Shown here in pieces: positions 24,451 through 46,863 of a DNA stretch of 64,000 nt. Numbering within the stretch: the first letter of the stretch is position 1; the number at the start of each line of letters is the position of its first letter. The DNA is from Frankiales bacterium (GTDB taxonomy: Bacteria > Actinomycetota > Actinomycetes > JAFAQI01): NCBI GenBank assembly GCA_025980325.1, contig JAICXQ010000001.1, positions 12,232 through 76,231 on the forward strand, given 5' to 3'. The translations under genes were made by a program, and so were the position numbers. The notes beneath the pieces are model-generated. The model saw only the letters and a program-made list of their open reading frames with translations. It was not told the DNA's origin and ran no database searches.

Positions 24451-24549
24451 GTGAGTCGCTGCAACATCGGTACCGACCCACTGACCCGCGACACCTATAA
24501 CTACGTCAACGGCGACTCGATTAACCTCACCGATCGCAGCGGGCACGCG
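24451..24549 (+). pseudogene. Orphan Rhs core-end fragment (displaced C-terminal tip)
   Basis: Encodes IGTDPLTRDTYNYVNGDSINLTDRSGH, about 81% nt identity to 21418-21500 of the main rhs. The frame degenerates immediately after SGH, and the downstream protein-like frame is shifted by +1. Confidence 0.6.
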
Positions 24550-24550
24550 G

Positions 24551-27118: not shown

Positions 27119-28489
27119 ATGACGATCGACATCGAACACTGGCGGCAGCGGCTGGCCCTGCTCGCCGACAAGCACGGCGTCCCCGGCGCCTCGCTGGCCA
27201 TCCTCAACGACGGCGACGTCGCGGACGCGGCGTACGGCGTCCTGAACCTAAGAACCCGCACCAACACAACGACGGACTCGCTGTTCCAGATCGGCTCGAT
27301 CACCAAAGTCTGGACCGCAACGCTCGTCATGCAACTCGTCGACGACGGACTGCTCGATCTCGACGCACCGCTCGTCACGTACCTCCCGAAATTCAGAGTC
27401 GAAGATCCCGACGTCACAACAAGCGTCACCACCCGGCACCTGCTCGCGCACACCAGCGGTATCGACGGCGACCTGTTTCTCGACACCGGCCGCGGCGACG
27501 ATTGCATCGAGCGTCACGTCGACGCCTGCGCGACACTCGGCCAGAACCATCCACTCGGCGCCACGATGTCCTACTGCAACGCCGGCTACACGATGCTCGG
27601 CCGGCTCATCGAAGTCTTGCGCGGCGCTACCTGGGACGACGTGCTAAGGGAGCGGCTGCTCACGCCACTTCGCGCACGCACCGCCGGCACCCTGCCGGAA
27701 GAAGCCTTGCTGCACAGCGCCGCCGTCGGCCACATCACCCCGCCCGGCAAGGAAATCACCGTTGCTCCGCGATGGGGCATCTTCCGCTCCGCCGGCCCGG
27801 CCGGCCTCATCCACGCCACCGCCCGCGATGTGCTGACCTTCGCGCAACTGCACCTCGACGACGGTGCAACACGAGACGGCACGAGAGTGCTCTCGAAACA
27901 GAGCGCGCAACGAATGCGCGAGCCACAGGTCGCCGTGCCGGACACCTACACTCTCGGCTCGCATTGGGGCCTCGGCTGGATCCTGATCAATTGGAGCGGC
28001 CAAGACGTGTACGGCCACGACGGCAACACCATCGGCCAGAGCGCCTACTTGCGCATCGTCCCGGACAAGGGCGTCGCCGTCTGCCTGCTTACCAACGGCG
28101 GGCATGCAGCCGACCTGTTCCGCGACCTGTTCAACGAAGTGTTAGGCGAGCTCGCCGGCGTCCTACTCCCACCACGCCTCGAACCACCGGCGCAGCCACC
28201 CGACGTCGACCTCAACGCGTACGCCGGCCGCTACGCGCGGCAGAGCTTCGAGATCACGTTCGAGACCGCCGGCGACCATCTCCTCGCGCAGCCGAAGACG
28301 AGCGGCGAGCTGGCGGCAGCAATCAGCGCCGAACCACTGCCGCCGTACGAGGTCTATCCCGTGCAGGAAGACGTCTTCGTCGGCCGCAACGAGGACGGCG
28401 CGTCGTGGACGCCGTTCGTGTTCTTCACCCTCGACGGCGGCGCGCGTTACCTGCACATGGGTGCCCGCGCGACCCCAAAGGTCGGCTGA
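27119..28489 (+). CDS. Beta-lactamase-family serine hydrolase (class C beta-lactamase/D-aminopeptidase-like)
   Basis: SxxK motif SITK near the N-terminus; about 455 aa; the AGGAGCAGGG RBS precedes ATG 27119. Confidence 0.8.
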   Translation: MTIDIEHWRQRLALLADKHGVPGASLAILNDGDVADAAYGVLNLRTRTNTTTDSLFQIGSITKVWTATLVMQLVDDGLLDLDAPLVTYLPKFRVEDPDVTTSVTTRHLLAHTSGIDGDLFLDTGRGDDCIERHVDACATLGQNHPLGATMSYCNAGYTMLGRLIEVLRGATWDDVLRERLLTPLRARTAGTLPEEALLHSAAVGHITPPGKEITVAPRWGIFRSAGPAGLIHATARDVLTFAQLHLDDGATRDGTRVLSKQSAQRMREPQVAVPDTYTLGSHWGLGWILINWSGQDVYGHDGNTIGQSAYLRIVPDKGVAVCLLTNGGHAADLFRDLFNEVLGELAGVLLPPRLEPPAQPPDVDLNAYAGRYARQSFEITFETAGDHLLAQPKTSGELAAAISAEPLPPYEVYPVQEDVFVGRNEDGASWTPFVFFTLDGGARYLHMGARATPKVG

Positions 28490-28501
28490 AAGAAACGGAG
28501 C

Positions 28502-30097
28502 TCACAGCGACGGGATCTGGAACGAGTTCCCGACGTACTTCGTGCACGTGCAGCTGTTGTCCCACTTGAAGTTCCAGCCGACCTGTACACCGTCGTGGCG
28601 GCTCGGCCCGTAGTACTCCTGCAGGAAACCCACGGACGGGTAGTTCAGCCCTGTGTTCTGCAGCGCCGCCGTGACCGTGTTGCGGGTGATCGACGGTCCG
28701 GCGTGCTCGACTCCCCACTTGAGCAGATACAGCGTGTCGCAATACCCGATCGCGATTCCAGCCGCGTTGGGCTGGCTGGCGAGCGACTGACCTGTCCGCT
28801 TGTCGATCATGTCGAGGCACGCCTTCATCCGCGGCGGCTCATACTTTGCCGCGTTCGACGGGGTCAGGTCGATGTCGGGGCTCCACCCGAATCCGACCGC
28901 GCCGTTGAGCTGTGACGCGTCGACGTCTCCGCCCGACTCGACCGTCTGAGTACCGGATCCGGACTCCAGCCCGTAGCGCGGGTGATACTGCTGGCCCTGG
29001 GCGGCCCGGCTGAAGAAGATGAGCAGGATCCCGTTCGCATCCAACAGGATCACGTGGTTCACACCGTCCTGGCGGAACTTCAGCTCGGCGTTGCCGACCG
29101 CGCTGACGACGCCCTGCTCGTCGGACGTGCTGTTGGGCCACGCCACCTTGATGACGTCGCCGGGATCCACCGGATGGCCCTGCGCGTTCAACCCGGCGAG
29201 CAGCCGGTTGAGCGGGCGGTTCCACTCCGGCTTGTCGTAGGTGAGCACGCCGATCTTCGTCGTCGCCGCCGGCGACGCCTGGCCGAGGTTCGCGTCCCAG
29301 CCGCTGTAGTAACCCATCGTCGCGAGGCTGCGGGGGAGTTGCTGGAACAGCCGGTCGGTCGTCAGCGTGCCGGCCTCGAAGTAGTACGGGAACTGCTGCA
29401 GCACGCCCTGATCCGGATAGAGGATCGTGCCGGAGTTGAAGTTCATCGCGCCGGCGTTTTCCATGCACGCGAGGAAGTTGTCGGTGAGTCCCTTGTCCAT
29501 TGCCGCGAAGACGTGGTTGTCCTGCGTATAGGTCGCGCACGCCTGCTGATCCATGTCCGAGTACGTGTCCGACGACGCGGCGTTGAGCGCGTGCCAGACC
29601 GGCACCAGCGTGCGCCCCGCGACCCCGCCGTGGGCGTTGATGTCGTCGACGACCGCCTTGGCGTCGGCCTGCGGATCTCCTTGCGAGATGCCGGTCGCGC
29701 CAATGGCCGCGTTCGCGGCGTCACCGTTGGTCTCGTAAGTGATGCCGACGTAGATCTTGGTGGGTGTGACGCCGACGCCTTCCGGAACGCCGTTGACGAG
29801 ATGCGTCCCCGGCGGCTGTCCCGCCGGCACGCCCGCACTACCGGTCGGCGTGAAGCCGCCCGGACCGGTGCCGGGCACCGACCCGGGCGCGGTCCCGCCC
29901 GGCCCGACGCCGGGCGCGCCGCCGTTCGGGCCGGTGGTCGGGACGCTGAGTCCCTGACTGTTGTTGGCAGATCCCTGCGGCGCACCGTTCGCGCCCAGGC
30001 CTTGCACGGTCGAGCCGCATCCGGCGAGCAGTACGACGGCGGCGACCGCGAGCAGCGGTCCTCGTGCGTGCGGTGGTTTCATCCGGCTCGGCCTCAT
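28502..30097 (-). CDS. Lipoprotein, type I periplasmic solute-binding protein (LivJ/amide-binding-like) of an ABC transporter
   Basis: Signal peptide with an LLAGCGS lipobox, a Gly/Pro-rich linker, then a roughly 400-aa periplasmic-binding-protein-like domain. Confidence 0.7.
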   Translation of the reverse strand: MRPSRMKPPHARGPLLAVAAVVLLAGCGSTVQGLGANGAPQGSANNSQGLSVPTTGPNGGAPGVGPGGTAPGSVPGTGPGGFTPTGSAGVPAGQPPGTHLVNGVPEGVGVTPTKIYVGITYETNGDAANAAIGATGISQGDPQADAKAVVDDINAHGGVAGRTLVPVWHALNAASSDTYSDMDQQACATYTQDNHVFAAMDKGLTDNFLACMENAGAMNFNSGTILYPDQGVLQQFPYYFEAGTLTTDRLFQQLPRSLATMGYYSGWDANLGQASPAATTKIGVLTYDKPEWNRPLNRLLAGLNAQGHPVDPGDVIKVAWPNSTSDEQGVVSAVGNAELKFRQDGVNHVILLDANGILLIFFSRAAQGQQYHPRYGLESGSGTQTVESGGDVDASQLNGAVGFGWSPDIDLTPSNAAKYEPPRMKACLDMIDKRTGQSLASQPNAAGIAIGYCDTLYLLKWGVEHAGPSITRNTVTAALQNTGLNYPSVGFLQEYYGPSRHDGVQVGWNFKWDNSCTCTKYVGNSFQIPSL

Positions 30098-30103
30098 TCC
30101 GGG

Positions 30104-31507
30104 TTACGCCTCGACCAGCGAGTCCGCGACTCTCGACGCCAGCCGACCTCCGAGATGTACCCCGGCCACGTGCCCGGATGCGTCGCGAGTGAAGTAACCG
30201 CGCATCCCCTGCGCGGGACCGTCCGGCACGACGTACGGGTCGCCGTCGCCGGCGATGATCGCGAGCGGGATCGGCGGCTGCTCGTCGGGAACGTCCTCGC
30301 CCTGCTCGCGCAGGACCGCCGCCATCGCCGGCTTGATCGTGACCTTGGCCGACAGGCGGCCGCCCTCGACGGTGATGTCGACCGTCGCGGCGATCGTCTC
30401 GAAGCTGCCGGCGTACTGCGCCAACGCGTCCTCGCCGAGCGAGAGCTGTTCCGGCTCGACACCGACGACGCCGAGGAAGTGTTCGAGCGCCCACTTCTCC
30501 AGCTGGTCGTTGAGCTGGTGGCCGTTCGGGCCGCAGTTCGTCATCGAGATGTAGGCGAACCCGCGTTCCGGCACCATCGTGAAGTTCGAGTACTGGCCGT
30601 TCGTCGTGCCGCCATGCCCGACGAGCCGTACGCCGGCGACGTCCTTCAGCAGCCAGCTGATCCCGACGTAGTCGCCGAGGGCACTGCCCTGCATCGACAT
30701 CGTCGGCTGCTTCATCAGGTCGAGCAGCTCCGTCGACAGCAGCCGGGTGCCGTCCGGCGCGGTGCCGTCGCCCAAGTGGAACTTCGCCCACGCGATCTGG
30801 TCGCGTGCGTTCGCCGACATCCCGCCCGCGGGTGCGTTGCCGCGCGGCAGCGCCCACGGCCTGGCGATGGTGATGCTGCCGTCGTCCTCGTCGCGGCGGT
30901 GCCCGACGGCGAAGCGGCGGGTCATGATCTCGTTCGGGAAGAAGAACGTGTGGTCCATCCCGAGCGGCTCGAGCAGCAGGTCGCGGATCGCTTTCTCGTA
31001 TGTCGTTCCTTGGATCCGCGCGATGATGTGGCCGGCCACGGACAGCGACGCGTTGTTGTACGACACGGTCGCGCCGAGCGGGGTGACCTGTTGCAGCCGC
31101 GCCATCTGCGCGACGTACTTCTCGAGCGCGTCGTCACCGTTGCCGGTGTCGTCCATCATGTCGCCTTCCCAACCAGCGGTGTGGTTGAGCAGCTGCAGCA
31201 CGGTGACCTTCGCGGCGACGTCCTCGTCGCGCAGCGTGAACTCCGGCAGGTACGTGCGCACCGGCTCGTCGAGGGCGAGCTTGCCCTGATCCACGAGTCG
31301 CATGACGGCGGTCGCGGTGTACGTCTTGCCCGTCGAGCCGAACTGGAACAACGTCGTCTCGTCGACCGGCAACGGGTTCTCGACGCTGGTGACGCCGTGG
31401 AACGCGTAGTGCTCCTCGCCGTCGACGAGGACACCGACCGAGACGCCGGGGACGTCGAGCTCGGTGGCGAGCTCGGTGAGTTTGCGTTGCAGCTCTTCGG
31501 TGCTCAT
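30104..31507 (-). CDS. Beta-lactamase-family serine hydrolase (second copy)
   Basis: SxxK motif STGK at about aa 58; about 467 aa. Lies 7 nt upstream of the solute-binding-protein gene on the same strand. Confidence 0.85.
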   Translation of the reverse strand: MSTEELQRKLTELATELDVPGVSVGVLVDGEEHYAFHGVTSVENPLPVDETTLFQFGSTGKTYTATAVMRLVDQGKLALDEPVRTYLPEFTLRDEDVAAKVTVLQLLNHTAGWEGDMMDDTGNGDDALEKYVAQMARLQQVTPLGATVSYNNASLSVAGHIIARIQGTTYEKAIRDLLLEPLGMDHTFFFPNEIMTRRFAVGHRRDEDDGSITIARPWALPRGNAPAGGMSANARDQIAWAKFHLGDGTAPDGTRLLSTELLDLMKQPTMSMQGSALGDYVGISWLLKDVAGVRLVGHGGTTNGQYSNFTMVPERGFAYISMTNCGPNGHQLNDQLEKWALEHFLGVVGVEPEQLSLGEDALAQYAGSFETIAATVDITVEGGRLSAKVTIKPAMAAVLREQGEDVPDEQPPIPLAIIAGDGDPYVVPDGPAQGMRGYFTRDASGHVAGVHLGGRLASRVADSLVEA

Positions 31508-31519
31508 CGGTCTGTCCTC

Positions 31520-33121
31520 TCAGGCGCCGCGGCGCAGCCGCCGGCCGGGTCGTTCGGATGTGACTTCGTTGTCGCGTACGACGACCCTGCCGTTGACGAC
31601 GACATGCCGCATGCCGGCCGCGTACCGGTGCGGGTTCTCGTACGTCGCCCGGTCGATGACCTCGTCCGGGTCGAAGACCGCGATGTCGGCGAACCGGCCG
31701 GGCTCCAGCTGGCCGCGATCGACGAGGCCGAAGTTGTCGGCGGGCAGGCTCGTCATCCGCCGTACGGCGTCGGGCAGCGGGACGAGACCCTCGTCGCGGC
31801 AGTAGTGGCCGAGGAATCTGGCGAACGTGCCGTAGGTGCGCGGGTGCGTCGCGGCGTCGGTGAACGGCGGCTCGGCCGGATGCGCCTCCGCATCCGAGCC
31901 GATCGACACCCACGGCTGGGACAGGCCGAGCCGGACGTTGTCCTCGTCCATCAGGAAGTAGAGCGCGCCCTGGCCGGGATCGCGTGCGACCAGTTCGAGC
32001 AACGCATCCGCGGGGTCGAGGTCGAGCTCGGCGGCGACCTCGTCGAGCCGCTTGCCGGCCGCGCGCGTGCCGTCGGCGAGGTCGGTGACGAACATGATCC
32101 CGTGGCCAAAGCCGGCGCCGTAGAAGAGGTTCTCGAACTCGTCCGACGGCTCGCGCATCGCCGCTGCCATCTGGATGCGTAGCTGCGGATCGCGGAGTCG
32201 CTCGACCAGCGCGGCCGGCCCGCCGACGTGGAACTGCGGCGGGATGGACGCCGCCAGCGCAGTCCCGCCGGCGGTGTACGGGTACATGTTCGCGGCGACC
32301 GGCTGCCCCGCCGCACGCGCTTGATCGATGCGCTCGATCGCGAGCTTCATCTTCGGCCAGTTGTCCTGCCCCGCCGCCTTGAGATGCCAGACCTCGGTAC
32401 GGCACGCCGCCTCGATGCCGATCGTCAGCAGTTCTTCGAGGCACTCGAGGAACTGGTCGCCCTCGCTGCGCATGTGCGAGATGTACGTGCCGCCATGACG
32501 GCCGACGACGGTCGAGAGCGCGATCAGCTCGTCGGTCCGGGCGAACCGGCCGGGTGGGTAGATCAGCGCGGTGCCGATGCCGAGCGCGCCGTCGGCCATC
32601 TCCTCGTCGACGAGCGCGCGCAACCGGTCGAGCTCGGCTCGTTCGAGTGGCCGGTCGTCGAAGCCGGCGCCGATGACGCGCAGGTTCACGCCGCCGATGA
32701 AGCTGGCCACGTTCGGCGCGACGCCGAGCCGTTCGAGATGGTCGAGACCCTCCGACAGCCGGTCGAACTCGACCTGCGCGCTCTCGCCGAGCCCGGCCCA
32801 CGGCCGCATCGCCTCGGTCAGCCGGCCGTCGGACGGGCCGAGCGAGAACGACTCGCCGAACACCTCCGTGGTGACGCCCTGAATGAGCTCGGAGGCGCCG
32901 CTGCCGTCTCGTTGCAGGCTTCCCCACGCGTGACTCAGCACGTTGACGAAGCCCGGCGCGACGACCAGGCCGGTGGCGTCGAGCTCGACCGCATCGACCG
33001 TGCCCTCGATCGCGCCGACGGTGACGATGCGGTCGCCGTCGACCGCGACGTCTGCTTGCCGCGCCGGCACCCCCGTGCCGTCGACGACCGTGCCGCCGCG
33101 GATGACGAGGGTGGCGGGCAT
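31520..33121 (-). CDS. Amidohydrolase family, N-acyl-D-amino-acid deacylase (D-aminoacylase)-like
   Basis: N-terminus IRGGTVVDGTG...VVAPGFVN is typical of D-aminoacylase/amidohydrolase-3 enzymes; 533 aa. Confidence 0.7.
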   Translation of the reverse strand: MPATLVIRGGTVVDGTGVPARQADVAVDGDRIVTVGAIEGTVDAVELDATGLVVAPGFVNVLSHAWGSLQRDGSGASELIQGVTTEVFGESFSLGPSDGRLTEAMRPWAGLGESAQVEFDRLSEGLDHLERLGVAPNVASFIGGVNLRVIGAGFDDRPLERAELDRLRALVDEEMADGALGIGTALIYPPGRFARTDELIALSTVVGRHGGTYISHMRSEGDQFLECLEELLTIGIEAACRTEVWHLKAAGQDNWPKMKLAIERIDQARAAGQPVAANMYPYTAGGTALAASIPPQFHVGGPAALVERLRDPQLRIQMAAAMREPSDEFENLFYGAGFGHGIMFVTDLADGTRAAGKRLDEVAAELDLDPADALLELVARDPGQGALYFLMDEDNVRLGLSQPWVSIGSDAEAHPAEPPFTDAATHPRTYGTFARFLGHYCRDEGLVPLPDAVRRMTSLPADNFGLVDRGQLEPGRFADIAVFDPDEVIDRATYENPHRYAAGMRHVVVNGRVVVRDNEVTSERPGRRLRRGA

Positions 33122-33233
33122 GCCGCCAGTCTCCGTTCAGTCCGCCCCGCGCGGCATGGTGCAGGCGGCACAACGCCGGGCCGCCGGATTGTGGTCGCCG
33201 ACATCGCCGGTCGGATACTGCGTTACGCCCGCC

Positions 33234-33575
33234 TCAGCGCCGGCGCGCGAGCGTCGCGCGCCCGTTGCGGATGTCCTCGCTGAGGGCGATGGCATCGCGG
33301 ACGAGCGTCTCGACCGCGTCGCGATGCTCGGCATCCCAGCGGCGGCCGAGGTGGATGCTCCACCCGCCGACGGCCATGCCGATCACGGCGAGACCGAGCA
33401 GCCCGCCCGAGACGAACCACGGCAGCTGCAACGGCACGTACGGCGTGCCCGCCGCGCCATGCCAGCCGACGCCGAGCATGACGAACCCGCCGGCCGCGAG
33501 CGCGACGAGGACCACGACGGCCTGGACGCCCGCGTCCCGCAACGCGATCCGCAACGCGCGAAGACGCCGTCTCAT
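33234..33575 (-). CDS. Small membrane protein (paralog B)
   Basis: Two TM helices (GGFVMLGVGWHG...LLGLAVIGMAVGGW). Its ATG overlaps the stop of paralog A (ATGA). Confidence 0.4.
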   Translation of the reverse strand: MRRRLRALRIALRDAGVQAVVVLVALAAGGFVMLGVGWHGAAGTPYVPLQLPWFVSGGLLGLAVIGMAVGGWSIHLGRRWDAEHRDAVETLVRDAIALSEDIRNGRATLARRR

Positions 33576-33940
33576 CGCAAGGTCCGCCGCAACTCGCCCA
33601 ACGCCTCGGACAGCGCCTCCGTCTGCCGGGCCCGCGCCGCCGCGTCCTGCCGCCGCGCGCTGACGTTGACGATCACGAGGCCCGTCATCACGAGGCCGAG
33701 GCCGGGCAAGCCGGCGGAGAGCAGGTACGGCATCTGCTGCCAGACCTCGGTGAGCCCGGCCACCTTCGCCCACCCGATGCCCATGAGCGTGAAGCCGATC
33801 GCCGCGACGGCGACGCCGATCAGCGTCGGCAGCAGCGAGGCGGGGTCGGTGAGCATCCGCCACCGCCCGCGGCGCCCGCCGTCGTCGATCCCGAGGGTGT
33901 CGTTCTCGCGCGGCTCCGACATGAGGCTGGCGTTCGTCAT
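33572..33940 (-). CDS. Small membrane protein (paralog A)
   Basis: Similar two-TM layout (GFTLMGIGWAKVAG...GLGLVMTGLVIV). Its start overlaps the M20 peptidase stop. Confidence 0.45.
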   Translation of the reverse strand: MTNASLMSEPRENDTLGIDDGGRRGRWRMLTDPASLLPTLIGVAVAAIGFTLMGIGWAKVAGLTEVWQQMPYLLSAGLPGLGLVMTGLVIVNVSARRQDAAARARQTEALSEALGELRRTLR

Positions 33941-35040
33941 GGGGTGTCCTCCAGCAGATCACGTACGAGAGCAGCGACGAGCGCGGCGCGTTGCGCCATC
34001 GCGGAGATCGAGGCCCATTCACCTTCCGCGTGCGCGTTGCCGCCGACCGCGCCGAGCCCGTCGAGCGTCGGTACGCCGAGGCCGCCGGTGATGTTGCCGT
34101 CCGACCCGCCGCCGACCGCGACGCCGGCGAGCTCATCGAGCCTGGCGCCGGCGGCGAGCCGTTGCGCGCGGGCGAAAAGCTCGGCCGACATCGACCGCTC
34201 GAGTGGCTGCCGAGACGATCGGGTCACCAGCTTCAACGACGCACCGGGCAGCTGCGGCGACAGCGATTCGAGCGCCTGCTCGACCCGTTGCATCTCGGCG
34301 ACCGTCTCGGCCCGTACGTCGATCGCGACGCTCGCGTTCGCCGGAACGGTGTTGACCGTCGTACCGCTCGTGACGACGGTCGGCGTGACGGTGGTGCCGG
34401 CATCGGCGCGGCCAAGGCCGGCCGCGGCGAGGATGACGTGCGCGGCCTCGACCGACGCGTTGATGCCGTTGTGCGGCTCGAGGCCGGCGTGCGCCGCGCG
34501 GCCGAGTACGTCGATCCGGAACATGCCGACGCCCTTGCGCGCGATCTTCAGCGCGCCGTCTGCGCTCGGTTCGAGGACGAGCACCGCGTTCGCGTCGCGG
34601 CAGGTGTCCTCGATCAGCGCCTGCCCGTTCGTCGAGCCGATCTCTTCGTCACTGGTGACGACGATCGCGATCCCGTCACGGTCGGTCAGCGACTGCACCG
34701 CGGCGAACAACTGCACGAGGCCGGCCTTCATGTCGAACACGCCCGGGCCGGTCATCGTGTCGCCGTCGACGGCGAACGGCCACCGGGCAAGAGTGCCGAT
34801 CGGCCACACGGTGTCGAGGTGCCCGAGCAGCACGACGCGCGGCGAGCCCGCCTTGCCGAACTGCCAGAGCAGGTGCGCGCGCCCGTCGATGTCGACCCGT
34901 TCGGCGGGCAGCGCCAGCCGGTGTTGCCCGACCTCGGCGACGACGTCGGCACAGCGGGTGACCGCGGCGAGGTCGTCCGACGGCGACTCGCACGCGACGA
35001 TCGCGGCGACGTCGTCGAGCAGCCCGCCCGCCGACGTCAT
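33937..35040 (-). CDS. M20-family metallopeptidase (carboxypeptidase G2/ArgE-like)
   Basis: Motifs LLGHLDTVWP and GVFDMKAG with a dimerisation-domain-like middle; 368 aa. Confidence 0.8.
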   Translation of the reverse strand: MTSAGGLLDDVAAIVACESPSDDLAAVTRCADVVAEVGQHRLALPAERVDIDGRAHLLWQFGKAGSPRVVLLGHLDTVWPIGTLARWPFAVDGDTMTGPGVFDMKAGLVQLFAAVQSLTDRDGIAIVVTSDEEIGSTNGQALIEDTCRDANAVLVLEPSADGALKIARKGVGMFRIDVLGRAAHAGLEPHNGINASVEAAHVILAAAGLGRADAGTTVTPTVVTSGTTVNTVPANASVAIDVRAETVAEMQRVEQALESLSPQLPGASLKLVTRSSRQPLERSMSAELFARAQRLAAGARLDELAGVAVGGGSDGNITGGLGVPTLDGLGAVGGNAHAEGEWASISAMAQRAALVAALVRDLLEDTP

Positions 35041-36035
35041 GACGACGCCTTTCGCGGAGTCGCGTCGCGGGTGAACAGCCGGGCGAAGAAGACGACCCCG
35101 GCGAGCAGCGCGAGCGGTGCGAGGAACGCGGCCGGGTTCTGGATCGGACCCGCGAACGCGACCGGTCGCTGCGCAAGCGGTGCTGCCGCCGGCGACTGCG
35201 GCGCGACGACCGGTGCGGGCACCGGCGCCGGCGACGCGGATGCCGGCAATGGCACCGGCGGTACGGTCACCGGCGCAGGTTGTGGCGGGACGAAAATCGG
35301 TGCGCCGCCCGGTATTCCGAAACCGGCGTCCGGTGCGGGCGCGCGGTAGCTGATCGTCGACGTCACGGGCTTCGCGCCGGACTGCTTGCGACCCTCGATC
35401 GTGACGTGCCACGCGTCGGTCTGGCCGACCTCGCTCTGGTTCGGCACGAGGGCGATGCCGAGCTGCTGCTTGCCGGCGTTCCATGCCTGCAGGAACGTCG
35501 TGAGGTCGAGGGTGAACGCGGCGCTCTTCGCGTCGTACACCGGCTTCGCCGACGTGGTGCAGTCGGTCGCCGGGGGCTTCGTCGGCGAACCTTGAGTGCC
35601 GTCGCTGAACGGTGCGGTGACCAGGCAGGCGAGGATCTTCGTGCTTGCCACCGACAACGAGCCGTCGGTGTTCGCGGTGTCGACGTGCAGCGTCATCGTT
35701 CCGCTCAGCAGGGTGGCGCCGAAGGGCAGCCGGCTCAGGTCGGGTTGCAGGTAGCTGCGCGCGGTCTCCTGGCCGCTCGCGACGCCGACGTGCAGGCTGC
35801 CGGCGGGGTACGGCGAGGTCGGGACCTGTTGCGGCGGGCAACCGAGTGGGGTCGAGCACACGTCGATCGGGGCCGACGCGTACCACGCCTCGGCGATGTC
35901 GCCGACGGTCGCCGACGGGTCGGCGGCGTGCGCGGAGCCGACGAGCAGCCCACCGAGCGGTACGGCGACGGCGACGGCCAGCAGCGCAGCGCGTTGCCCG
36001 CTACGCCGCCTGCTCACGCCCGCTGGTTTCGCCAT
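35037..36035 (-). CDS. Secreted Pro-rich protein with a C-terminal hydrophobic anchor
   Basis: Signal peptide MAKPAGVSRRRSGQRAALLAVAVAVPLGGLLVGSAHA, a Pro-rich C-terminal region, then a TM segment plus basic tail. Confidence 0.55.
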   Translation of the reverse strand: MAKPAGVSRRRSGQRAALLAVAVAVPLGGLLVGSAHAADPSATVGDIAEAWYASAPIDVCSTPLGCPPQQVPTSPYPAGSLHVGVASGQETARSYLQPDLSRLPFGATLLSGTMTLHVDTANTDGSLSVASTKILACLVTAPFSDGTQGSPTKPPATDCTTSAKPVYDAKSAAFTLDLTTFLQAWNAGKQQLGIALVPNQSEVGQTDAWHVTIEGRKQSGAKPVTSTISYRAPAPDAGFGIPGGAPIFVPPQPAPVTVPPVPLPASASPAPVPAPVVAPQSPAAAPLAQRPVAFAGPIQNPAAFLAPLALLAGVVFFARLFTRDATPRKASS

Positions 36036-36183
36036 CTGCCCGGGTGGTCCTGCCCTTCGCTCGGGTGCGTCCAGCATCGCGCGCTCATGATCACGCGGCA
36101 TCGTCGGCCGGTACCAACCGGCGGCGCACGCCTCGTGGCAGCGGATGAGGTTTCCGTCCGCCCGCCGGCACTAGTGTCGCGTC

Positions 36184-37290
36184 GTGAAGCTGACGGCCGT
36201 CGAGCTGCGGCGTATCTCGCTCCCCTTGGTCGCACCGTTCCGTACGTCGTTCGGCACCGAGACGACGAAGGACGCGCTGCTCGTCCGGGCCGTCACTCCG
36301 GACGGCGAGGGGTGGGGCGAGTGCGTCGCGATGGGCGCACCGCTCTACTCGTCCGAGTACATCGACGCGGCGGAGGATGTCGTCCGCCGGTTCCTGCTGC
36401 CGCGGCTGTTCGCGGCGGGCGACGTGACGGCCGGTCAGGTCGCGCACCTGCTCGCGCCGATCAAAGGCCATCCGATGGCGAAGGCGGCCCTGGAGATGGC
36501 GCTGCTCGACGCCGAGTTGCGCGCCGCCGGGCAGTCACTCGCGACATTCTTCGGTGCGGTGCGCGACCGCGTTCCGTCCGGTGTGTCGGTCGGGATCATG
36601 GACACGATCGCGCAGCTGCTCGACGTCGTCGGCGGCTACCTCGCGGAGGGCTACGTCCGGATCAAGCTGAAGATCGAGCCGGGCTGGGACGTCGAGCCGG
36701 TCCGCGCGGTGCGGGAGCGGTTCGGCGACGAGTTGCTGTTGCAGGTCGACGCGAACACCGCGTACACCCTCGGTGACGCTCGCCGGCTGGCCGAGCTCGA
36801 TCCGTTCGGCTTGTTGCTGATCGAGCAGCCGTTGGCCGAGGACGACCTGCGCGGGCACGCCGAGCTCGCGAAGCGCATCGCGACTCCGGTGTGTCTCGAC
36901 GAGTCGGTGACGTCGGCGCGGGCGGCGGCGGACGCGATCGCGCTCGGCGCCTGCCAGATCATCAACGTGAAGCCCGGACGGGTCGGCGGCTACCTGGAGG
37001 CGCGCAGGATCGCCGCCGTCGCCGCGGCCAACGGGGTGCCGGTGTGGTGCGGCGGGATGCTCGAGACCGGCATCGGCCGCGGCGCGAACGCCGCGCTGGC
37101 GGCCGGCCCGGAGTTCACGCTGCCGGGTGACGTGTCGGCCTCCGGGCGGTTCTATGCGCGCGACATCACCGAGCCGTTCGTCCTCGACGACGGGCACATC
37201 CGGGTGCCGACCGGGCCCGGCATCGGGGTGGACGTTCTCGCCGACGTGCTGGCCGACGTGACGACCGCGGTGGAGACGGTCCGGGGTTGA
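36184..37290 (+). CDS. Enolase-superfamily enzyme: o-succinylbenzoate synthase / N-succinyl(acyl)amino acid racemase-like
   Basis: Motifs KIK...D (VRIKLKIEPGWD), VDAN, LIEQP and LDES are typical of OSBS/NSAR members; 368 aa. Confidence 0.85.
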   Translation: MKLTAVELRRISLPLVAPFRTSFGTETTKDALLVRAVTPDGEGWGECVAMGAPLYSSEYIDAAEDVVRRFLLPRLFAAGDVTAGQVAHLLAPIKGHPMAKAALEMALLDAELRAAGQSLATFFGAVRDRVPSGVSVGIMDTIAQLLDVVGGYLAEGYVRIKLKIEPGWDVEPVRAVRERFGDELLLQVDANTAYTLGDARRLAELDPFGLLLIEQPLAEDDLRGHAELAKRIATPVCLDESVTSARAAADAIALGACQIINVKPGRVGGYLEARRIAAVAAANGVPVWCGGMLETGIGRGANAALAAGPEFTLPGDVSASGRFYARDITEPFVLDDGHIRVPTGPGIGVDVLADVLADVTTAVETVRG

Positions 37291-37353
37291 CGCGGCCCAG
37301 CAGGGTGGCCCGGGCTTCGTGATCATGGCGTTGGACGGCAGCGAACGCCATGA

Positions 37354-38400
37354 TCACGCAGGTGCGGCGGCGCTCGTGTTGTCGGCGAGCACGCGCAGCG
37401 CGTTGCGGCCGGTGAGCCTCATCAGGTCGGCGTTTGACCAGCCTCGTTGCGCGAGCTCATCGAGCAATCGCGGGTACGTCGAGACGTCGCCGAGATCCTG
37501 CGGCAGGTCGGGGCAGCCGTCGAAGTCGCCGCCGAGACCGACGTGGTCGACGCCGGCGACCTCGCGGACGTGCTCGACGTGGTCGGCGACCTGCCGCACG
37601 GTCACGACCGGTTTCGGTCCGGCACCACCCCCGTCGTCCCAGGCCCGGTACGCCTCGTCGACGAACTGCGGCACGAACGCCACCATGCACACGCCGCCGT
37701 TGCCGGCGAGCTCGTGCAGGATGTCGTCGGGAACGTTGCGCGGGTGGTCGACCAGCGCGCGGGCACTGGAGTGCGAAAACATCACCGGCTTGCTCGTCGT
37801 CTCCAGCGCCGCTGCCATCGTCGCCGGCGACACGTGCGAGAGGTCGACGATGACGCCCAACTCGTTCATCCGGCGTACGACCTCACGACCGAACTCGCTC
37901 AGCCCGTTCGTGCGCGGCTCGTCGGTGGCGGCGTCGGCCCATGCGGTGTTGTCGTTGTGGGTGAGGGTGAGGTAGCGCACGCCGAGAGCGTGCAACGCCC
38001 AGAGCCCGGACAATGATCCGCCGATGCTGTGCCCGCCCTCGGCGCCGATCAGCGAGGCGATCTTACGGTCGGCCAGCGCCTTCTCGACCTCGTCCGCGTT
38101 GCGGGCGAGCACGAGCCGGTCCGGGTGGCGCGCGACCATCCGGTGCACGAGATGCACCTGCTCGATCGTCGTCCGCAGCGCCTCGTCCTCGGGCCGGTCC
38201 GACGGTACGTAGACCGACCACCACTGCACCCCGACGCCACCGGCCGCCAGCCGCTCCAAGTCGGTGTGGAACTGCGGGAGCGGACCGGTGAGGTCGGTGG
38301 CGTCGAGGTCGGTGCCGGCCAGCCGCATCGCCCAGGGCAGGTCGTTGTGCCCGTCGACGATGGGCGACTCGGCCAGCACCTGGGCTATCCGGTCGGTCAT
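37354..38400 (-). CDS. Membrane dipeptidase (M19, renal-dipeptidase family)
   Basis: N-terminal VDGHNDLPW, plus DLSH and HSSAR motifs; 348 aa. Confidence 0.85.
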   Translation of the reverse strand: MTDRIAQVLAESPIVDGHNDLPWAMRLAGTDLDATDLTGPLPQFHTDLERLAAGGVGVQWWSVYVPSDRPEDEALRTTIEQVHLVHRMVARHPDRLVLARNADEVEKALADRKIASLIGAEGGHSIGGSLSGLWALHALGVRYLTLTHNDNTAWADAATDEPRTNGLSEFGREVVRRMNELGVIVDLSHVSPATMAAALETTSKPVMFSHSSARALVDHPRNVPDDILHELAGNGGVCMVAFVPQFVDEAYRAWDDGGGAGPKPVVTVRQVADHVEHVREVAGVDHVGLGGDFDGCPDLPQDLGDVSTYPRLLDELAQRGWSNADLMRLTGRNALRVLADNTSAAAPA

Positions 38401-42100: not shown

Positions 42101-42320
42101 ACGAGGCCGACCGCGAGCAGCCCGTACGTGAGCCCGACGATCGTGCCGAGCACGACGACCGGCAACGGTGTCGACGCGTGGATGACACCCTGCGCATCGA
42201 GCACGGCGGTGGCGAGCTTCGCCGCGACGACGGCCGCGACGAACAGGGCCAGCTGCACGACGATGCGCCGCGGCGGCAACCAAGCGCGGCTGCGGAATGA
42301 GTCGGCGACGGCGGTCATCC
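39148..42320 (-). CDS. Fused ABC transporter protein: LivH-like permease + LivM-like permease + LivG-like ATPase + C-terminal helix-hairpin-helix tail (about 1057 aa)
   Basis: A single uninterrupted frame runs through two permease domains (IINFAHGQIGAFGA...; LTLGQFAVAAIGAVISY...), the ATPase (GLIGPNGAGKTT, LSTGTRR, LLLDEPSSG) and the tail LLRGVRGLGKTKARTLVATFGGNGALHQASVDDLQRVPGVGPELARRI. The start ATG overlaps the upstream gene stop (ATGA). Confidence 0.65.
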
Positions 42321-44504
42321 GGCCGCAGCAGCACCGTGGAGGAAGACGGCACGGAGCAGGTCGTCGCGTTCGAGCAGCTGCGCGGCCGGACCGTCGAAGC
42401 GCATCTCGCCCTTCTCCATGAAGTACGCATGCTCGACGAGGTTGAGCGCGATGTTCACGGACTGCTCGACCAGCACGACCGCGGTGCCGTCGTCGTTGAT
42501 GCGGCGCACCATGTCGAGCAACTGACCGACGATCACCGGTGCCAGGCCGAGTGAGAGCTCGTCGATGAGCAGCAGCCGCGGCCGCAGCATGAGCGCCTTG
42601 GACAAGCCGAGCATCTGCTGCTCGCCGCCCGACAGCGTGGCCGCCGTCGAGTTGCGCCGTTCGGCGAGACGAGGGAACGCGTCGAAGCAGGTGTCGATCG
42701 CCCGCTCCACCGCGCGCCGGTTGCCGGCCATCGAGTAGCCGTAGCTGCGCAGGTTTTCGACGACCGTCATCGGGCCGAAGACGGCGCGCCCGCCCGGCAC
42801 CTGCGTGATGCCGAGGCGCAGCCGGCGTTCCGCGTCGAGGTAGGTGATCTCCTGCCCGCGATAGCGGATGGTGCCGCGAGTGGGCAGGCCGATGCCGGAG
42901 ATCACTTTCAGCAGCGTCGACTTGCCGGCGCCGTTCACGCCGAGCAGCGCCACCATCTCGCCGTCGTCGACGGTGAAGTCGACGCCGAAGAGCACCTGCA
43001 ACTGCCCGTACGAGAAGTCGATCGAGCGGGTGGCGAGCATCGGCAGCGGGCGGCCGGCGGAACGCAACCGCCTGATCTCCTCGTCCTCGAGCACCTCGTC
43101 GATCATCCGATCGAGGTCGCGATCGATCAGCTTGCCGGCACTGCCGATGATCGCAGCGCCGATGACGCCCGGGATCGCGATCGAGATCATCGTGCCGACG
43201 ACGCCGAACTGCGCCTGCACGCTGCCGAGCAGCAGCGCCCCGATGACACCACCGACCGCCTGGAAGATCGCGGCGAGCGCCTGCGCGTGTGGTCGCGCGT
43301 TCGCCGGCACGATCGAGAGCAGGCACACGTAGAGCAACGGCGTCAGCAGGCCGATGGCCGCGCCGGCGACGCCGAAGCAGGCGATCATCGGCCAGAACCA
43401 CGGCATCGCGCCGCCGACCGCGATGAGCACCACACCGAAGCCGAGCAGGACACCGCACCCGCGCATCACGAATCGCGGTGACGCGCGGAACTGCTTCTCG
43501 CCGCGACCGCCGTACCCGAGCAGGGCGACGACGCTGCAGCCGGAATAGAAGGCGAAGAATACGCCGCGGCCGCCGGCACCGAGGTTCCAGCGCTGGTCGA
43601 GGAAGAACGAGATGAACACGTTGAGCGGCACGATGAGCAGGCCGAGGACCGCGACGCCCGCCATCAGCCGGCGGTTCGTAGGGATGAGCATGATCCGCCG
43701 GCAGATCTCCCAGAATCCCAGCGCGACCTCGTCGCTCCTGAGTACGTCGGCCGGTTCGCCGTGGACCTCGCGGACACTCGCGCGCAGCCGCTCGGTGTCC
43801 CACTTGCCGAAGCCGGGATCGCGCAGGCCGATCGCGAACAACGTGATGACGACCGAGGTCGCGCCCATGACGAGGAACACGCCGCGCCAGGTGAAGCCGA
43901 GCACGCCGGCGAGCAAGGCGACGAACAGCGGCGACGCGAACAGGCCGAACGAGCCGATCGCGTTGTACGCCGACACCGCACGGACTCGCGTCTCCGGGTG
44001 ATAGCTGTCCATCACGAGCGGTGTGTGCAGCGCGAGCACCGATCCGGTGGTGAGGCCGTCGAGCATGAGGATGCCCAACAGACCGAGCAGCGACGTGACG
44101 AAGCCGGTGAACAACGTGATGAAGCTCCACCCGATCCCGGTGACGATGCAGAGCATCGCGCGCCGGGCCCGTCGTTGCGACAGCCACGCGACCGGCAACG
44201 GGGCGATCCCGATCGCGATCCGGTGCAACGAGAACGACGCGCCGATGACGGCGATCGAGATGCCCAACGCCCGGCTGATGTCGGGCGCGAGGACGGTGAA
44301 TGCGTAGACCTGGAACGAGTCCGTCATGTAGAGCAGGCCGAGCGCGATGAGCGGGTAGTACGACAGCCCGTAGCGACGGACCAGCTGGTGGAACGACGCC
44401 GTCCGCTCGTCACCGATCACGCCGAGCGTCGCGCGCGCCTGCTCCCGCAACGCGTCGCGCGTCTGCTCGATGTCCCGGATGGCCTCCCGGTCGGCGACGC
44501 TCAT
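42315..44504 (-). CDS. MFS-transporter domain fused to a LivF-type ABC ATPase (about 729 aa)
   Basis: About 12 TM helices after MSVADREAIRDIEQTR, then a C-terminal ATPase (GVNGAGKST, LSGGEQQMLGL, LLLIDELSLG). The long ORF extension upstream of Met122 is an R-rich artefact. Confidence 0.65.
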   Translation of the reverse strand: MSVADREAIRDIEQTRDALREQARATLGVIGDERTASFHQLVRRYGLSYYPLIALGLLYMTDSFQVYAFTVLAPDISRALGISIAVIGASFSLHRIAIGIAPLPVAWLSQRRARRAMLCIVTGIGWSFITLFTGFVTSLLGLLGILMLDGLTTGSVLALHTPLVMDSYHPETRVRAVSAYNAIGSFGLFASPLFVALLAGVLGFTWRGVFLVMGATSVVITLFAIGLRDPGFGKWDTERLRASVREVHGEPADVLRSDEVALGFWEICRRIMLIPTNRRLMAGVAVLGLLIVPLNVFISFFLDQRWNLGAGGRGVFFAFYSGCSVVALLGYGGRGEKQFRASPRFVMRGCGVLLGFGVVLIAVGGAMPWFWPMIACFGVAGAAIGLLTPLLYVCLLSIVPANARPHAQALAAIFQAVGGVIGALLLGSVQAQFGVVGTMISIAIPGVIGAAIIGSAGKLIDRDLDRMIDEVLEDEEIRRLRSAGRPLPMLATRSIDFSYGQLQVLFGVDFTVDDGEMVALLGVNGAGKSTLLKVISGIGLPTRGTIRYRGQEITYLDAERRLRLGITQVPGGRAVFGPMTVVENLRSYGYSMAGNRRAVERAIDTCFDAFPRLAERRNSTAATLSGGEQQMLGLSKALMLRPRLLLIDELSLGLAPVIVGQLLDMVRRINDDGTAVVLVEQSVNIALNLVEHAYFMEKGEMRFDGPAAQLLERDDLLRAVFLHGAAAAG

Positions 44505-46811: not shown

Positions 46812-46863
46812 CGTCGCGGACCCTGCCTTGCGCGGCGAAGGCAACCCGGTCATACTCCGAATG

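Follow-up and report, generated by a model that had tools for sequence, protein, structure and literature searches.

A conserved actinobacterial gene cluster with a Liv-type importer, S12 hydrolases and an N-succinylamino acid racemase may salvage bound D-amino acids

The window analysed here, a stretch of 64,000 nucleotides from a Frankiales bacterium, holds a cluster of hydrolase, racemase, transport and regulatory genes (Table 1) that were called from codon-position GC together with Pfam, NCBIfam and PDB searches. The same approach recovered all seven proteins named in the original prediction, which had placed a coherent cluster for D-peptide catabolism at positions 27119-38400 (GC3 of the listed genes, 0.82-0.99); that list had overlooked two small membrane proteins, TM1 and TM2, and a DNRLRE-domain protein, and its right edge proved too narrow, leaving out the importer, the small lipoprotein, the PucR-type regulator and the GNAT acyltransferase of a functional unit that extends to about 49869.

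Table 1. Features of the cluster, with positions in the window
Feature	Position	Strand	Supporting evidence
Bla1, S12 beta-lactamase-fold serine hydrolase, 456 aa	27119..28489	+	PF00144, 213 bits
Lipoprotein solute-binding protein (SBP), 531 aa	28502..30097	-	lipobox LLAGC, Cys27; Gly/Pro-rich linker
Bla2, S12 hydrolase + C-terminal lipocalin-type domain, 467 aa	30104..31507	-	PF00144, 221 bits
D-aminoacylase-family amidohydrolase (Amidohydro_3), 533 aa	31520..33121	-	1M7J 8e-83, 3GIP 4e-65
TM2, small 2-TM protein	33234..33575	-	GC-frame plot
TM1, small 2-TM protein	33572..33940	-	GC3 0.99
M20 metallopeptidase, carboxypeptidase G2-like	33937..35040	-	PF01546, PF07687; CPG2 1CG2 3e-34
DNRLRE-domain protein, secreted, Pro-rich, C-terminal TM anchor	35037..36101	-	NF033679 41.5 bits; signal peptide
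N-succinylamino acid racemase (NSAR/OSBS subfamily), 368 aa	36184..37290	+	TIGR01928 299.7 bits, cut-off 200.65
Hairpin	37315..37361		18-nt arms, 94% complementary, 11-nt loop
M19 dipeptidase, Sco3058/renal dipeptidase-like, cytoplasmic	37354..38400	-	PF01244 375 bits; 3ID7 1.9e-119
Secreted protein, 212 aa	38411..39049	-	no family match
LivH-LivM-LivG-HhH fusion, 1056 aa	39148..42318	-	BPD_transp_2 (two stretches), ABC_tran, BCA_ABC_TP_C, HHH
MFS-LivF-like ATPase fusion, 729 aa	42315..44504	-	MFS_1, ABC_tran; LivF 193 bits
Small lipoprotein	44501..45082	-	lipobox LTAGC
PucR/CdaR-type transcriptional regulator	45171..46853	-	GGDEF_2 + HTH_30
GNAT acyltransferase	48973..49869	-	Acetyltransf_1

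The tight packing and translational coupling proposed for the minus strand are borne out by ATGA start/stop overlaps between the DNRLRE and M20, M20 and TM1, and TM1 and TM2 genes and, further right, between the MFS-LivF gene and both the permease and small lipoprotein genes (five junctions in all), and by gaps of 6 bp between Bla2 and the SBP and 12 bp between the amidohydrolase and Bla2. The NSAR and M19 genes converge, and the hairpin lying between them is probably a bidirectional terminator for both. The DNRLRE gene has an alternative ATG start at 36035 and its product is kept in four related clusters (L001, L002, L003, L077); TM1 is 57-64% identical in syntenic clusters; its paralogue TM2, which gave no match in Pfam or NCBIfam, is kept after M20 in four clusters (L001, L002, L077, L079); and the secreted 212-residue protein was not found in related clusters.

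Bla1 (motifs S60xxK63, Y152xN154, H300xG) and Bla2 (S58xxK61, Y150xN152, H298xG) are IS11/Pab87 (CubicO)-type S12 enzymes with HxG as the third motif. The best PDB matches of Bla1 are IS11 (7SPN, 3e-58) and SurE (1e-38), while Bla2 matches IS11 over its full length at 3e-108 and then Pab87 (2QMI), and its homologues carry the JGI label 'CubicO group peptidase'. IS11, the closest solved structure to both, is a family VIII carboxylesterase of metagenomic origin that has a lipocalin lid and shares the Ser/Lys/Tyr/Asn/His motifs exactly; it came from an esterase screen, whereas the window proteins stand in a peptidase and amino-acid context, and it is documented as a carboxylesterase only, with esters alone assayed, a record that counts against salvage of D-amino acids. 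Pab87, among the top solved relatives of both proteins, is D-stereospecific, and its locus in Pyrococcus abyssi (PMC2651629), for which the use of environmental D-peptides has been proposed, sets an S12 + lipocalin D-peptidase next to genes for a D-aminoacylase, for an aminotransferase and for an ABC transporter of dipeptides. The window likewise pairs S12 hydrolases with an ABC importer and an enzyme of the D-aminoacylase family; it differs in being bacterial, in its two or three S12 paralogues, in a Liv-type rather than Dpp-type importer, in an added M19 dipeptidase and in what would be a succinylation-racemisation route for D-amino acids where P. abyssi has an aminotransferase to remove them. 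Two other identities were rejected: class C beta-lactamases (75 and 116 bits for the two proteins against a model cut-off of 415, and HxG instead of KTG) and orthologues of the D-aminopeptidase DAP (NF009622, 64.9 bits against 443); of the DAP-like hydrolases first envisaged, the beta-lactamase fold stands and the likeness to DAP does not.

The amidohydrolase has the fold and domain order of Alcaligenes faecalis D-aminoacylase (1M7J) and the N-acyl-D-Glu deacylase Bb3285 (3GIP) and conserves the beta-site histidines (H216, H246), the catalytic Asp (D410) and the YPY substrate motif, but has Glu90 in place of Cys96, L-S-H in place of HxH (L-S-W in more distant members) and an insertion of about 60 residues. 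It belongs to a divergent subfamily, with no member among solved structures, of the family to which it had been assigned; because it lacks Cys96 and the leading histidine of the HxH motif, its D-acylase activity is put forward as presumptive, and the enzyme may act on another amide, which would count against D-amino-acid salvage. The M19 dipeptidase shares all metal-ligand motifs (H18xD20, E122, H189, H210, D-F-D) with Sco3058 (3ID7) of Streptomyces coelicolor, an enzyme that Cummings and colleagues reportedly found, in 2010, to prefer L-Xaa-D-Xaa dipeptides; its orthologues, at 56-58% identity, occur in three loci (L078, L079, L096), and related clusters use paralogues at only 33-35%.

The racemase, correctly named from the outset, is 73% identical over 362 aa to Amycolatopsis NSAR (1SJA, 8.8e-176) and has every catalytic and specificity residue (K163, D189, E214, D239, K263, R266). 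According to the Glasner laboratory, the biological role of the Amycolatopsis enzyme is probably that of an NSAR, within a D-to-L pathway published in 2006 that consists of a GNAT succinyltransferase, NSAR/OSBS and an M20 L-desuccinylase, and the literature assigns this role to Amycolatopsis-type enzymes on the ground that OSBS is encoded separately, in men operons. All three families are present in the window. The M20 protein, with its metal-ligand motifs (H74xD, D103, E132E133, H337), would be the N-succinyl-L-amino-acid desuccinylase, and the GNAT, likened by family only to the characterised succinyltransferase of Geobacillus, is the candidate D-amino-acid N-succinyltransferase partner of NSAR. 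Homologues of this GNAT occur in 59 of 80 metagenomic NSAR loci and, among the 62 informative ones (those with at least 900 bp upstream), 42 have the homologue immediately upstream of NSAR and in its orientation; M20 homologues of 47-54% identity adjoin GNAT-NSAR in 17/80, and the window types of GNAT and M20 are those adjoining NSAR in most related loci. The claim of complete stereochemical processing gains backing from the GNAT, a conserved NSAR/M20 partner, at the level of presumed enzyme functions. Unlike in the published pathway, the three genes form no single operon: they are scattered across 16 kb in separate transcription units or on opposite strands, with the importer, membrane proteins and four hydrolases interspersed. 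GNAT is moreover split from the rest of the cluster by an RHH + ABC-2 exporter unit unrelated to it, and both features count against the salvage reading.

The importer is, to judge from its domains, Liv-type with unusual fusions. The LivH-LivM-LivG fusion (LivG, 205 bits) is 63-75% identical across every related cluster examined; the MFS-LivF fusion has 892 homologues, some in cultured Kribbella, Nonomuraea and Actinocrispum, with a common architecture in 120/120 of the matches listed; and the small lipoprotein gene, whose product is 42-55% identical in five loci (L003, L078, L081, L161, L162), lies invariably immediately upstream of the MFS-LivF gene. All cluster enzymes lack signal peptides (Bla1 is cytoplasmic on this criterion), in contrast to the lipoprotein SBP, which scored 31.2 bits against the Peripla_BP_6 cut-off of 31.7 and gave no match in a PDB sequence search. 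Its AF2 model (pLDDT 85.9) matches LivJ, UrtA and aromatic-acid binding proteins in Foldseek at 12-16% identity and TMt 0.6-0.75, confirming a LivJ-type fold. Binding proteins and transporters of this LivJ/HAAT type take ligands of amino-acid size, and the fold speaks for a small ligand and not an oligopeptide; the likelier cargo is therefore a dipeptide, an N-acyl-D-amino acid or a D-amino acid in free form, and longer peptides are less likely, a correction to the D-peptide import first proposed. The fold class is known to take amino acids, urea and both aromatic and fatty acids, not peptides, and this counts against salvage. The SBP family comprises 128 matches at E<=1e-10, all those with a source name being metagenome-assembled genomes (MAGs), and its copies in related clusters are duplicated and fast-diverging (25-47% identity). 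The PucR gene adjoins the cluster in L078 and L081 and NSAR modules in 9/80 metagenomic loci, and in L078 it adjoins a GNAT homologue of 58% identity; no shared operator motif was found across the intergenic regions of the cluster, which also weighs against salvage.

The cluster is a real, evolutionarily conserved actinobacterial unit, and it is more than chance because the gene set repeats in syntenic order in independent genomes, as the predicted coherence implied. Whole-cluster synteny extends to Mycobacteriales MAGs (L001, L002), Acidimicrobiales MAGs (L003, L078, L079/L080) and L077 and L081, with most components at 55-86% protein identity; the binding protein, TM2, the lipoprotein and the DNRLRE protein are less well conserved. 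A core of importer, two S12 hydrolases and M19 is found in cultured Kribbella and Nonomuraea as well, and all eight independent MFS-LivF loci with enough flank, Kribbella capetownensis and Nonomuraea among them, hold an S12 gene and an M19 or Amidohydro_3 gene.

The reading we favour, with a probability of about 0.6, is a two-module salvage of D-amino acids taken up as part of small compounds. The family assignments (S12/CubicO, D-aminoacylase family, Sco3058-like M19, NSAR) point to D-stereochemistry. The link to peptides is drawn from a Nocardioides locus, where a Bla2 orthologue and a second S12 gene accompany a Dpp/Opp transporter and a Tricorn/S9/S12 fusion, and from L084, where OppF, a fusion of S9 with a Bla1-type S12 domain (also seen in L075), M20, GNAT and NSAR follow one another on one strand; the D-specific link is drawn from the presence in L077, L079 and L135 of genes for M55 D-aminopeptidases of the DppA family and from the stereospecificity and locus of Pab87. 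D-peptidase-type neighbours stand beside a minority of NSAR modules (8/80 loci), a further count against this reading.

It is unlikely, though it would need much the same machinery, that the cluster recycles the stem peptides of the cell's own peptidoglycan during growth rather than external D-compounds. M19, the S12 relatives of DD-peptidases, and the M55 and gamma-glutamyltranspeptidase genes of syntenic relatives (the latter in one of them) would fit the cutting of L-Ala-gamma-D-Glu-DAP-D-Ala-D-Ala, and Pab87 takes terminal D-Ala off muropeptides; yet the window has no amidase, LdcA/Mpl-type or AEE-type L-Ala-D/L-Glu epimerase genes, a housekeeping route would be expected more widely than this patchy distribution, and a putative high-affinity SBP with diverging duplicates suggests varied external ligands. 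Equally improbable, in our estimate, is a cluster for breaking down not peptides but amino acids with an N-acyl or N-succinyl group, or some other small amide or ester, its S12 enzymes being esterases or amidases on non-peptide substrates. Against the LivJ/HAAT-type binding protein and transporter, the esterase activity of IS11 in vitro and the industrial use of an NSAR, M20 and D-acylase-like trio on N-acyl amino acids, all of which would suit it, must be set the S9 fusions and Opp/Dpp linkage of Bla1-type domains, the constant partnership of the M19 dipeptidase and the M55 aminopeptidases gained by relatives.

Carbapenems can be hydrolysed by M19 enzymes and D-stereospecific S12 resistance peptidases exist, and two beta-lactamase-fold proteins invite the thought of resistance to, or detoxification of, beta-lactams or D-amino-acid-containing peptide antibiotics; this is very improbable given the cytoplasmic location of both proteins, their HxG motif and low class C scores, and the predominance of an importer over an exporter, and the connection with a route for inverting amino acids indicates nutrition. 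Just as improbable is that unrelated hydrolases merely happen to lie around a menC gene for menaquinone synthesis. NSAR/OSBS enzymes do catalyse the o-succinylbenzoate synthase reaction, the NSAR gene is opposite in strand to its neighbours and our view of the genome is the window alone, but synteny including that reversed gene is kept across two classes of Actinomycetota, GNAT-NSAR linkage is tight, men genes are absent within the 64 kb and the literature favours the NSAR role.

Returning to D-amino-acid salvage, the interpretation with which we began appears largely right and is partly supported. The component families are known; their combined arrangement has not been described. In a first module, the LivJ-fold lipoprotein would capture small extracellular substrates, which may be free or N-acylated D-amino acids or else di- and tripeptides with D-residues, for instance from peptidoglycan debris (the peptidoglycan or antibiotic source first suggested is conjectural), and would hand them to the atypical importer formed by the two Liv fusions and the small lipoprotein, whereupon Bla1, Bla2, the M19 dipeptidase and the amidohydrolase, if D-specific, would free D-amino acids in the cytoplasm. 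In a second, probably like the first under PucR-type control, GNAT would N-succinylate the D-amino acid from a presumed succinyl donor, NSAR would turn the N-succinyl-D- into the N-succinyl-L-amino acid, and M20 would hydrolyse the latter, yielding the L-amino acid and succinate.

The window encodes an extracytoplasmic lipoprotein solute-binding protein (SBP), an ABC importer and six cytoplasmic enzymes whose catalytic motifs are intact, and the linkage of these genes is conserved. In its general form, the reading that importer, hydrolases and inversion module together salvage D-amino acids from small compounds has in our estimate a probability of about 0.6; any specific substrate would be named with far less confidence. 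The importer would take up small D-amino-acid-containing compounds, from which two S12 serine hydrolases (Bla1 and Bla2), an M19 dipeptidase and a D-aminoacylase-family amidohydrolase (DAA) would free the D-amino acids; a GNAT acyltransferase, an N-succinylamino acid racemase (NSAR) and an M20 peptidase would convert these to L-amino acids and succinate, and a PucR-type regulator probably controls the cluster genes.

The original prediction, a cluster at 27119-38400 for the catabolism of D-amino-acid-containing or N-acylated peptides, proved largely right in its interpretation: all seven genes that it named are present there, the M20 and M19 enzymes with their metal ligands and the binding protein with its lipoprotein character, while corrections are needed to the S12 subfamily, to the active site of the amidohydrolase, to the size of the cargo and to the boundaries. 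In particular, the unit continues to the right on the minus strand, where the importer, the regulator and the GNAT gene had been missed.

Features of the cluster, in window coordinates
Feature	Coordinates	Strand	Remark
Bla1	27119-28489	+	beta-lactamase-fold protein
SBP, binding protein	28502-30097	-	lipoprotein
Bla2	30104-31507	-	second beta-lactamase-fold protein
DAA, Amidohydro_3 enzyme	31520-33121	-	
TM2-type and TM1-type small 2-TM paralogues	33234-33575; 33572-33940		absent from the original prediction
M20 peptidase	33937-35040	-	
DNRLRE-domain protein, secreted	35037-36101		absent from the original prediction
NSAR/OSBS-type enolase-superfamily enzyme	36184-37290	+	
Hairpin, 18-nt arms	37315-37361		between convergent NSAR and M19 genes
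M19 dipeptidase	37354-38400	-	
Secreted 212-aa protein	38411-39049	-	
LivH + LivM + LivG fusion with C-terminal helix-hairpin-helix	39148-42318	-	1056 aa
MFS domain + LivF-like ATPase fusion	42315-44504	-	729 aa
Small lipoprotein	44501-45082	-	
PucR-type regulator	45171-46853	-	
Ribbon-helix-helix + ABC-2 exporter unit	~46900-48960	+	inserted
GNAT acyltransferase	48973-49869	-	beyond the inserted exporter unit

Within the window (G+C about 70%) the real genes have GC3 values of 0.82-0.99, the expected codon-position bias. Genes are densely packed along the minus strand from 36101 to 28502, with ATGA overlaps at DNRLRE/M20, M20/TM1 and TM1/TM2 and gaps of 12 bp (DAA/Bla2) and 6 bp (Bla2/SBP); ATGA overlaps also join the importer genes. 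A motif search of seven intergenic regions returned GC-rich noise and no shared operator motif, which leaves the adjacent PucR gene as the sequence evidence for co-regulation. Between that gene and the lipoprotein/importer operon lies a perfect 11-nt inverted repeat (GATCGCTGTGC/GCACAGCGATC, 5-nt spacer, 45137-45163) that may act as terminator or operator. The SBP, the M19 enzyme, the GNAT, the small lipoprotein and the 212-aa secreted protein matched no NCBIfam model.

The importer has the features that define a HAAT (LivHMGF-type) system, namely two BPD_transp_2 domains, LivG- and LivF-type ATPases and a type I binding protein, in an atypical layout whereby H, M and G form one chain that also carries a helix-hairpin-helix domain at its C-terminus, and an MFS domain is joined to LivF. 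The latter fusion has 892 homologues, with the same architecture in 120 of 120 among the matches listed, and these include cultured Kribbella, Nonomuraea and Actinocrispum. The MFS domain is of the 12-TM type, and its presence inside an ABC importer (39148-44504, minus strand; 10001-15129 and 10001-15210 in the related loci L161 and L162) is an unexplained architecture. Relative to the Acidimicrobiales locus L078, the ribbon-helix-helix gene and the ABC-2 exporter (ATPase and permease) are an insertion between the PucR and GNAT genes; in Nonomuraea, too, an ABC-2 exporter (L162, 7713-9192; ATPase 37% identical) immediately precedes the genes for the lipoprotein and the importer, so that the exporter may be a recurrent accessory.

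No sequence relative of the SBP was found among solved structures in a PDB search; its confident structural model (pLDDT 85.9) shows a type I fold like that of LivJ and UrtA, with 12-16% identity to the structural matches. Since a LivJ-type binding protein favors small cargo over oligopeptides, the model argues for amino-acid- to dipeptide-sized compounds or N-acyl-D-amino acids, not oligopeptides. At E<=1e-10 the protein has 128 matches, of which all source-named ones come from metagenome-assembled genomes (MAGs). For the small lipoprotein, AlphaFold with a single sequence as input gave an unusable model (pLDDT 33.6).

The association of these genes recurs well beyond the window. A genome search seeded with DAA led to two Mycobacteriales MAGs (L001, L002) in which the order is MFS-LivF, LivHMG, NSAR (opposite strand), DNRLRE, M20, TM1, TM2, an M19 paralogue, DAA, Bla2, a further S12 enzyme and two SBPs, and an Acidimicrobiaceae MAG (L003) carries transporter, Bla2, SBP, DAA and Bla1. 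The Acidimicrobiales loci L079/L080, reached through Bla2 homologues, hold the cluster together with an M55 (DppA-family) D-aminopeptidase; L078 has the order GNAT-PucR-lipoprotein-transporter-NSAR-Bla2-M19, and locus L077 the order M20-TM-TM-M19-DAA-Bla2-S12-M55, plus PepX, gamma-glutamyltranspeptidase and a GNAT that was not homologous to that of the window by tblastn. Nocardioides has, after its Bla2 orthologue, another S12 enzyme, then a peptide transporter of Dpp/Opp type and a giant peptidase of Tricorn/S9/S12 composition in one examined genome. Kribbella capetownensis (GCA_004331485.1, contig SJKD01000002.1, 783755-805962) and Nonomuraea have the transporter (71-72% identity) followed by a Peripla_BP_6 protein, two S12 enzymes and M19, these SBP, S12 and M19 partners being just 25-37% identical to those of the window. 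The association thus holds at family level across actinobacterial families while the SBP and the hydrolases diverge, a pattern expected of a conserved transporter scaffold that serves related but distinct substrates. Proteins of L078 and L079/L080, labelled Acidimicrobiales, are 55-78% identical to those of the window's Mycobacteriales-like lineage (NSAR 76-78%), which is high for different classes and points either to horizontal transfer of the cluster as a whole or to mislabelling of the bins. A peptidoglycan origin of the substrate would fit the M55, gamma-glutamyltranspeptidase and M19 enzymes and the DD-peptidase relatives, and is put forward as speculation; recycling of the cell's own wall, which would share the chemistry and differ in its source, seems to us improbable.

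To the left of the cluster G+C falls to 0.60 (22-27 kb), and the Rhs toxin island on this side is not part of the cluster. It comprises a 3719-aa Rhs/YD-repeat protein (11242-22401, plus strand; RHS_repeat 125.8 bits, DUF6531) with a C-terminal tip after the motif 'DPLTRDSYNYVNGDPINLIDPSGH', a 109-aa ORF (22398-22727) that overlaps its stop and is likely the immunity protein, and an orphan copy of that motif ('DPLTRDTYNYVNGDSINLTDRSGH', 24451-24723) whose downstream ORFs match no family; the region resembles a polymorphic-toxin island that borders on the cluster and includes orphan toxin/immunity cassettes. A tyrosine recombinase (Phage_integrase and SAM-like N domain; 9423-10631, minus strand) lies just left of the Rhs gene, and a scan of the whole window found no tRNA genes. 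On the right, 54315-64000 holds housekeeping genes (acyl-CoA oxidase, panB, NAD synthase, glutamine synthetase), which indicate a chromosomal, non-island location.

Bla1 (S60/K63, Y152/N154, H300) and Bla2 (S58/K61, Y150/N152, H298) carry the SxxK, YxN and HxG motifs and lack signal peptides; they were classified by curated-model scores, E-values against the PDB and the third motif. Their nearest solved relative is IS11 (7SPN; 3e-58 for Bla1, 3e-108 for Bla2), followed by Pab87 and the PBP-type cyclases SurE and Ulm16, and Bla1 additionally matches the R61 DD-peptidase and alkaline D-peptidase. The alignment of Bla2 with IS11 (residues 8-456 against 19-451) spans the IS11 lipocalin domain; that of Bla1 stops at residue 401 of 456. 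The earlier DAP-like label had to be withdrawn for Bla1, which scores 64.9 bits against an equivalog cut-off of 443 (NF009622) and matches 1EI5 at just 6e-15, and is accordingly no orthologue of the Ochrobactrum-type DAP. Pab87 is D-stereospecific: it cleaves D-Ala-pNA and shows DD-carboxypeptidase activity towards muropeptides (PMC2651629). The context of M55, M19 and S9 fusions leads us to predict D-stereospecific peptidase activity for Bla1 and Bla2; relatives that occur with Dpp/Opp systems point to peptides as the substrate class. Giant one-chain peptidases that join a Tricorn/PD40 beta-propeller and Peptidase_S9 to an S12 domain of Bla1 type (51-59% identity to Bla1) adjoin Dpp/Opp transporters in loci L075 (18243-21383) and L084 (904-4374). 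Catabolism of a non-peptide N-acyl amino acid or ester would suit both the transporter type and the record of IS11, an esterase with the same catalytic residues and a lipocalin lid that has been assayed only on esters; given the S9 fusions, M19 and M55, which speak against it, we regard it as unlikely. Antibiotic resistance is very improbable, given that location (not secreted), motif (HxG, not KTG) and class C beta-lactamase model scores (NF033085; 74.8 bits for Bla1 and 116.4 for Bla2 against a cut-off of 415) all fail; the reading of the two proteins as true beta-lactamases was rejected on these same three counts.

The amidohydrolase does belong to the D-aminoacylase family, as predicted (1M7J, 8e-83; N-acyl-D-Glu deacylase, 4e-65), and keeps the beta-site H216 and H246 (His220/His250), the catalytic D410 (Asp366) and Y280-P-Y282, all invariant in the alignment; the importance of the YPY motif is taken from PMC12149444. 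Its active site nevertheless departs from that of the family, the bridging Cys96 aligning to a gap beside Glu90 and the canonical HxH (His67/His69) being replaced ('DSHTH' in the reference, 'NVLSH', i.e. L-S-H, here), and it carries an insertion of about 60 residues. The same Cys96 and HxH substitutions occur in all close subfamily members, and their presence in homologues of several phyla (44-76% identity) indicates an uncharacterised subfamily, of which no member was found among solved structures. Cys-less, HxH-less enzymes with the motif L-S-W/H ... G-E (42-51% identity) also occur in loci L004-L020 (matches mostly at ~10001-11580) from Acidobacteriota, Alpha- and Gammaproteobacteria, Chloroflexota, Bacteroidota-like and Ignavibacteriales MAGs, mostly without other cluster genes. 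The M19 enzyme (Pfam 375 bits against a cut-off of 26; Sco3058, 1.9e-119) has all the motifs of the binuclear metal site (H18xD20, E122, H189, H210, DFD), and the M20 enzyme is carboxypeptidase-G2-like.

The enolase-superfamily gene, predicted as OSBS/NSAR-type, belongs to the NSAR/OSBS subfamily of the MLE subgroup by TIGR01928 (299.7 bits against a cut-off of 200.65) and by 73% identity to the Amycolatopsis enzyme (1SJA, 8.8e-176), with catalytic K163/K263, metal ligands D189/E214/D239 and the second-shell specificity determinant R266 at the same positions (roles in PMC12006748). Context, that is, linkage to GNAT and the lack of men genes in the 64-kb window, favors NSAR rather than OSBS as the biological activity. 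According to the Glasner laboratory, irreversible D-to-L conversion by GNAT, NSAR and M20 is the expected role of Amycolatopsis-type NSAR, and species with such an enzyme either have a separate men-operon OSBS or need no OSBS activity for menaquinone. All three families are encoded in the window, where they are spread over 16 kb on both strands among hydrolase and transporter genes instead of forming one contiguous operon; the GNAT, for which a PDB search gave no sequence match, would succinylate D-amino acids, and the M20 enzyme would be specific for N-succinyl-L-amino acids.

A metagenome scan for NSAR yielded 80 loci (51-77% identity), with a homologue of the window GNAT in 59, the window-type M20 in 17 and a PucR regulator in 9; of the 62 loci with at least 900 bp of upstream sequence, 42 have the GNAT homologue immediately before NSAR on the same strand. 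GNAT, NSAR and M20 are contiguous in L084, L105, L106, L107 and L118; L084 reads OppF, S9-S12 (Bla1-type) fusion, M20, GNAT, NSAR on a single strand and L106 holds an ABC transporter, a Beta-lactamase2-family protein, a DAA-like enzyme, GNAT, M20 and NSAR. Hydrolases accompany the module in L088 and L113 (Bla1-type), L096 (M19), L100 (DAA and Bla2) and L135 (M55). An IS110-family transposase (11647-13014) lies immediately downstream of the contiguous transporter-to-NSAR operon of L106. A chance neighbourhood in which NSAR acts as menC has very little to commend it, the former being contradicted by synteny and a menC-only role by the GNAT linkage.

The nearest published analogues of the salvage locus are the Geobacillus GNAT-NSAR-M20 operon and the Pab87 locus of Pyrococcus abyssi, where an S12-lipocalin D-peptidase has a dipeptide ABC transporter and a D-aminoacylase as neighbours and for which the authors proposed the use of environmental D-peptides (PMC2651629). 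The window unites both ideas in one locus and, compared with these accounts, adds M19, a Cys-less D-acylase subfamily, a new SBP family and an unusual fused Liv-type importer, a combination of which we found no description in the open-access literature. A bolder and rather doubtful extension of the salvage reading is that soil actinobacteria possess an unrecognised, self-contained supercluster for D-amino-acid nutrition, comprising a new Liv-type importer subfamily (defined by the MFS-domain/ATPase fusion, a dedicated small lipoprotein and the new SBP family), which would import N-acyl-D-amino acids or dipeptides containing D-amino acids from microbial necromass, CubicO-type S12, M19 and Cys-less D-acylase enzymes, which would set the D-amino acids free, and the GNAT-NSAR-M20 module, which would invert them. 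If true, it would be the first physiological substrate supply chain for Amycolatopsis-type NSAR.

The Amycolatopsis NSAR, a textbook example of a promiscuous enzyme, is also used industrially as a biocatalyst, and we know of no cellular source for its substrates. In the cluster an importer and four hydrolases from D-stereospecific families lead directly into the GNAT-NSAR-M20 inversion, a complete and testable pathway. NSAR and the CubicO-type hydrolases thus gain a physiological setting that is concrete and open to experiment, with the importer, S12 and M19 core of cultured Kribbella and Nonomuraea, among them Nonomuraea sp. NPDC050536, as an experimental entry. The S12 enzymes, the Cys-less D-acylases and the importer with its MFS-ATPase fusion have yet to be characterised, and D-amino-acid biocatalysis could make use of them. 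Peptidoglycan-derived D-amino acids are a large, slowly turned-over pool of soil nitrogen, and dedicated uptake and inversion in abundant uncultured actinobacteria would bear on the recycling of necromass.
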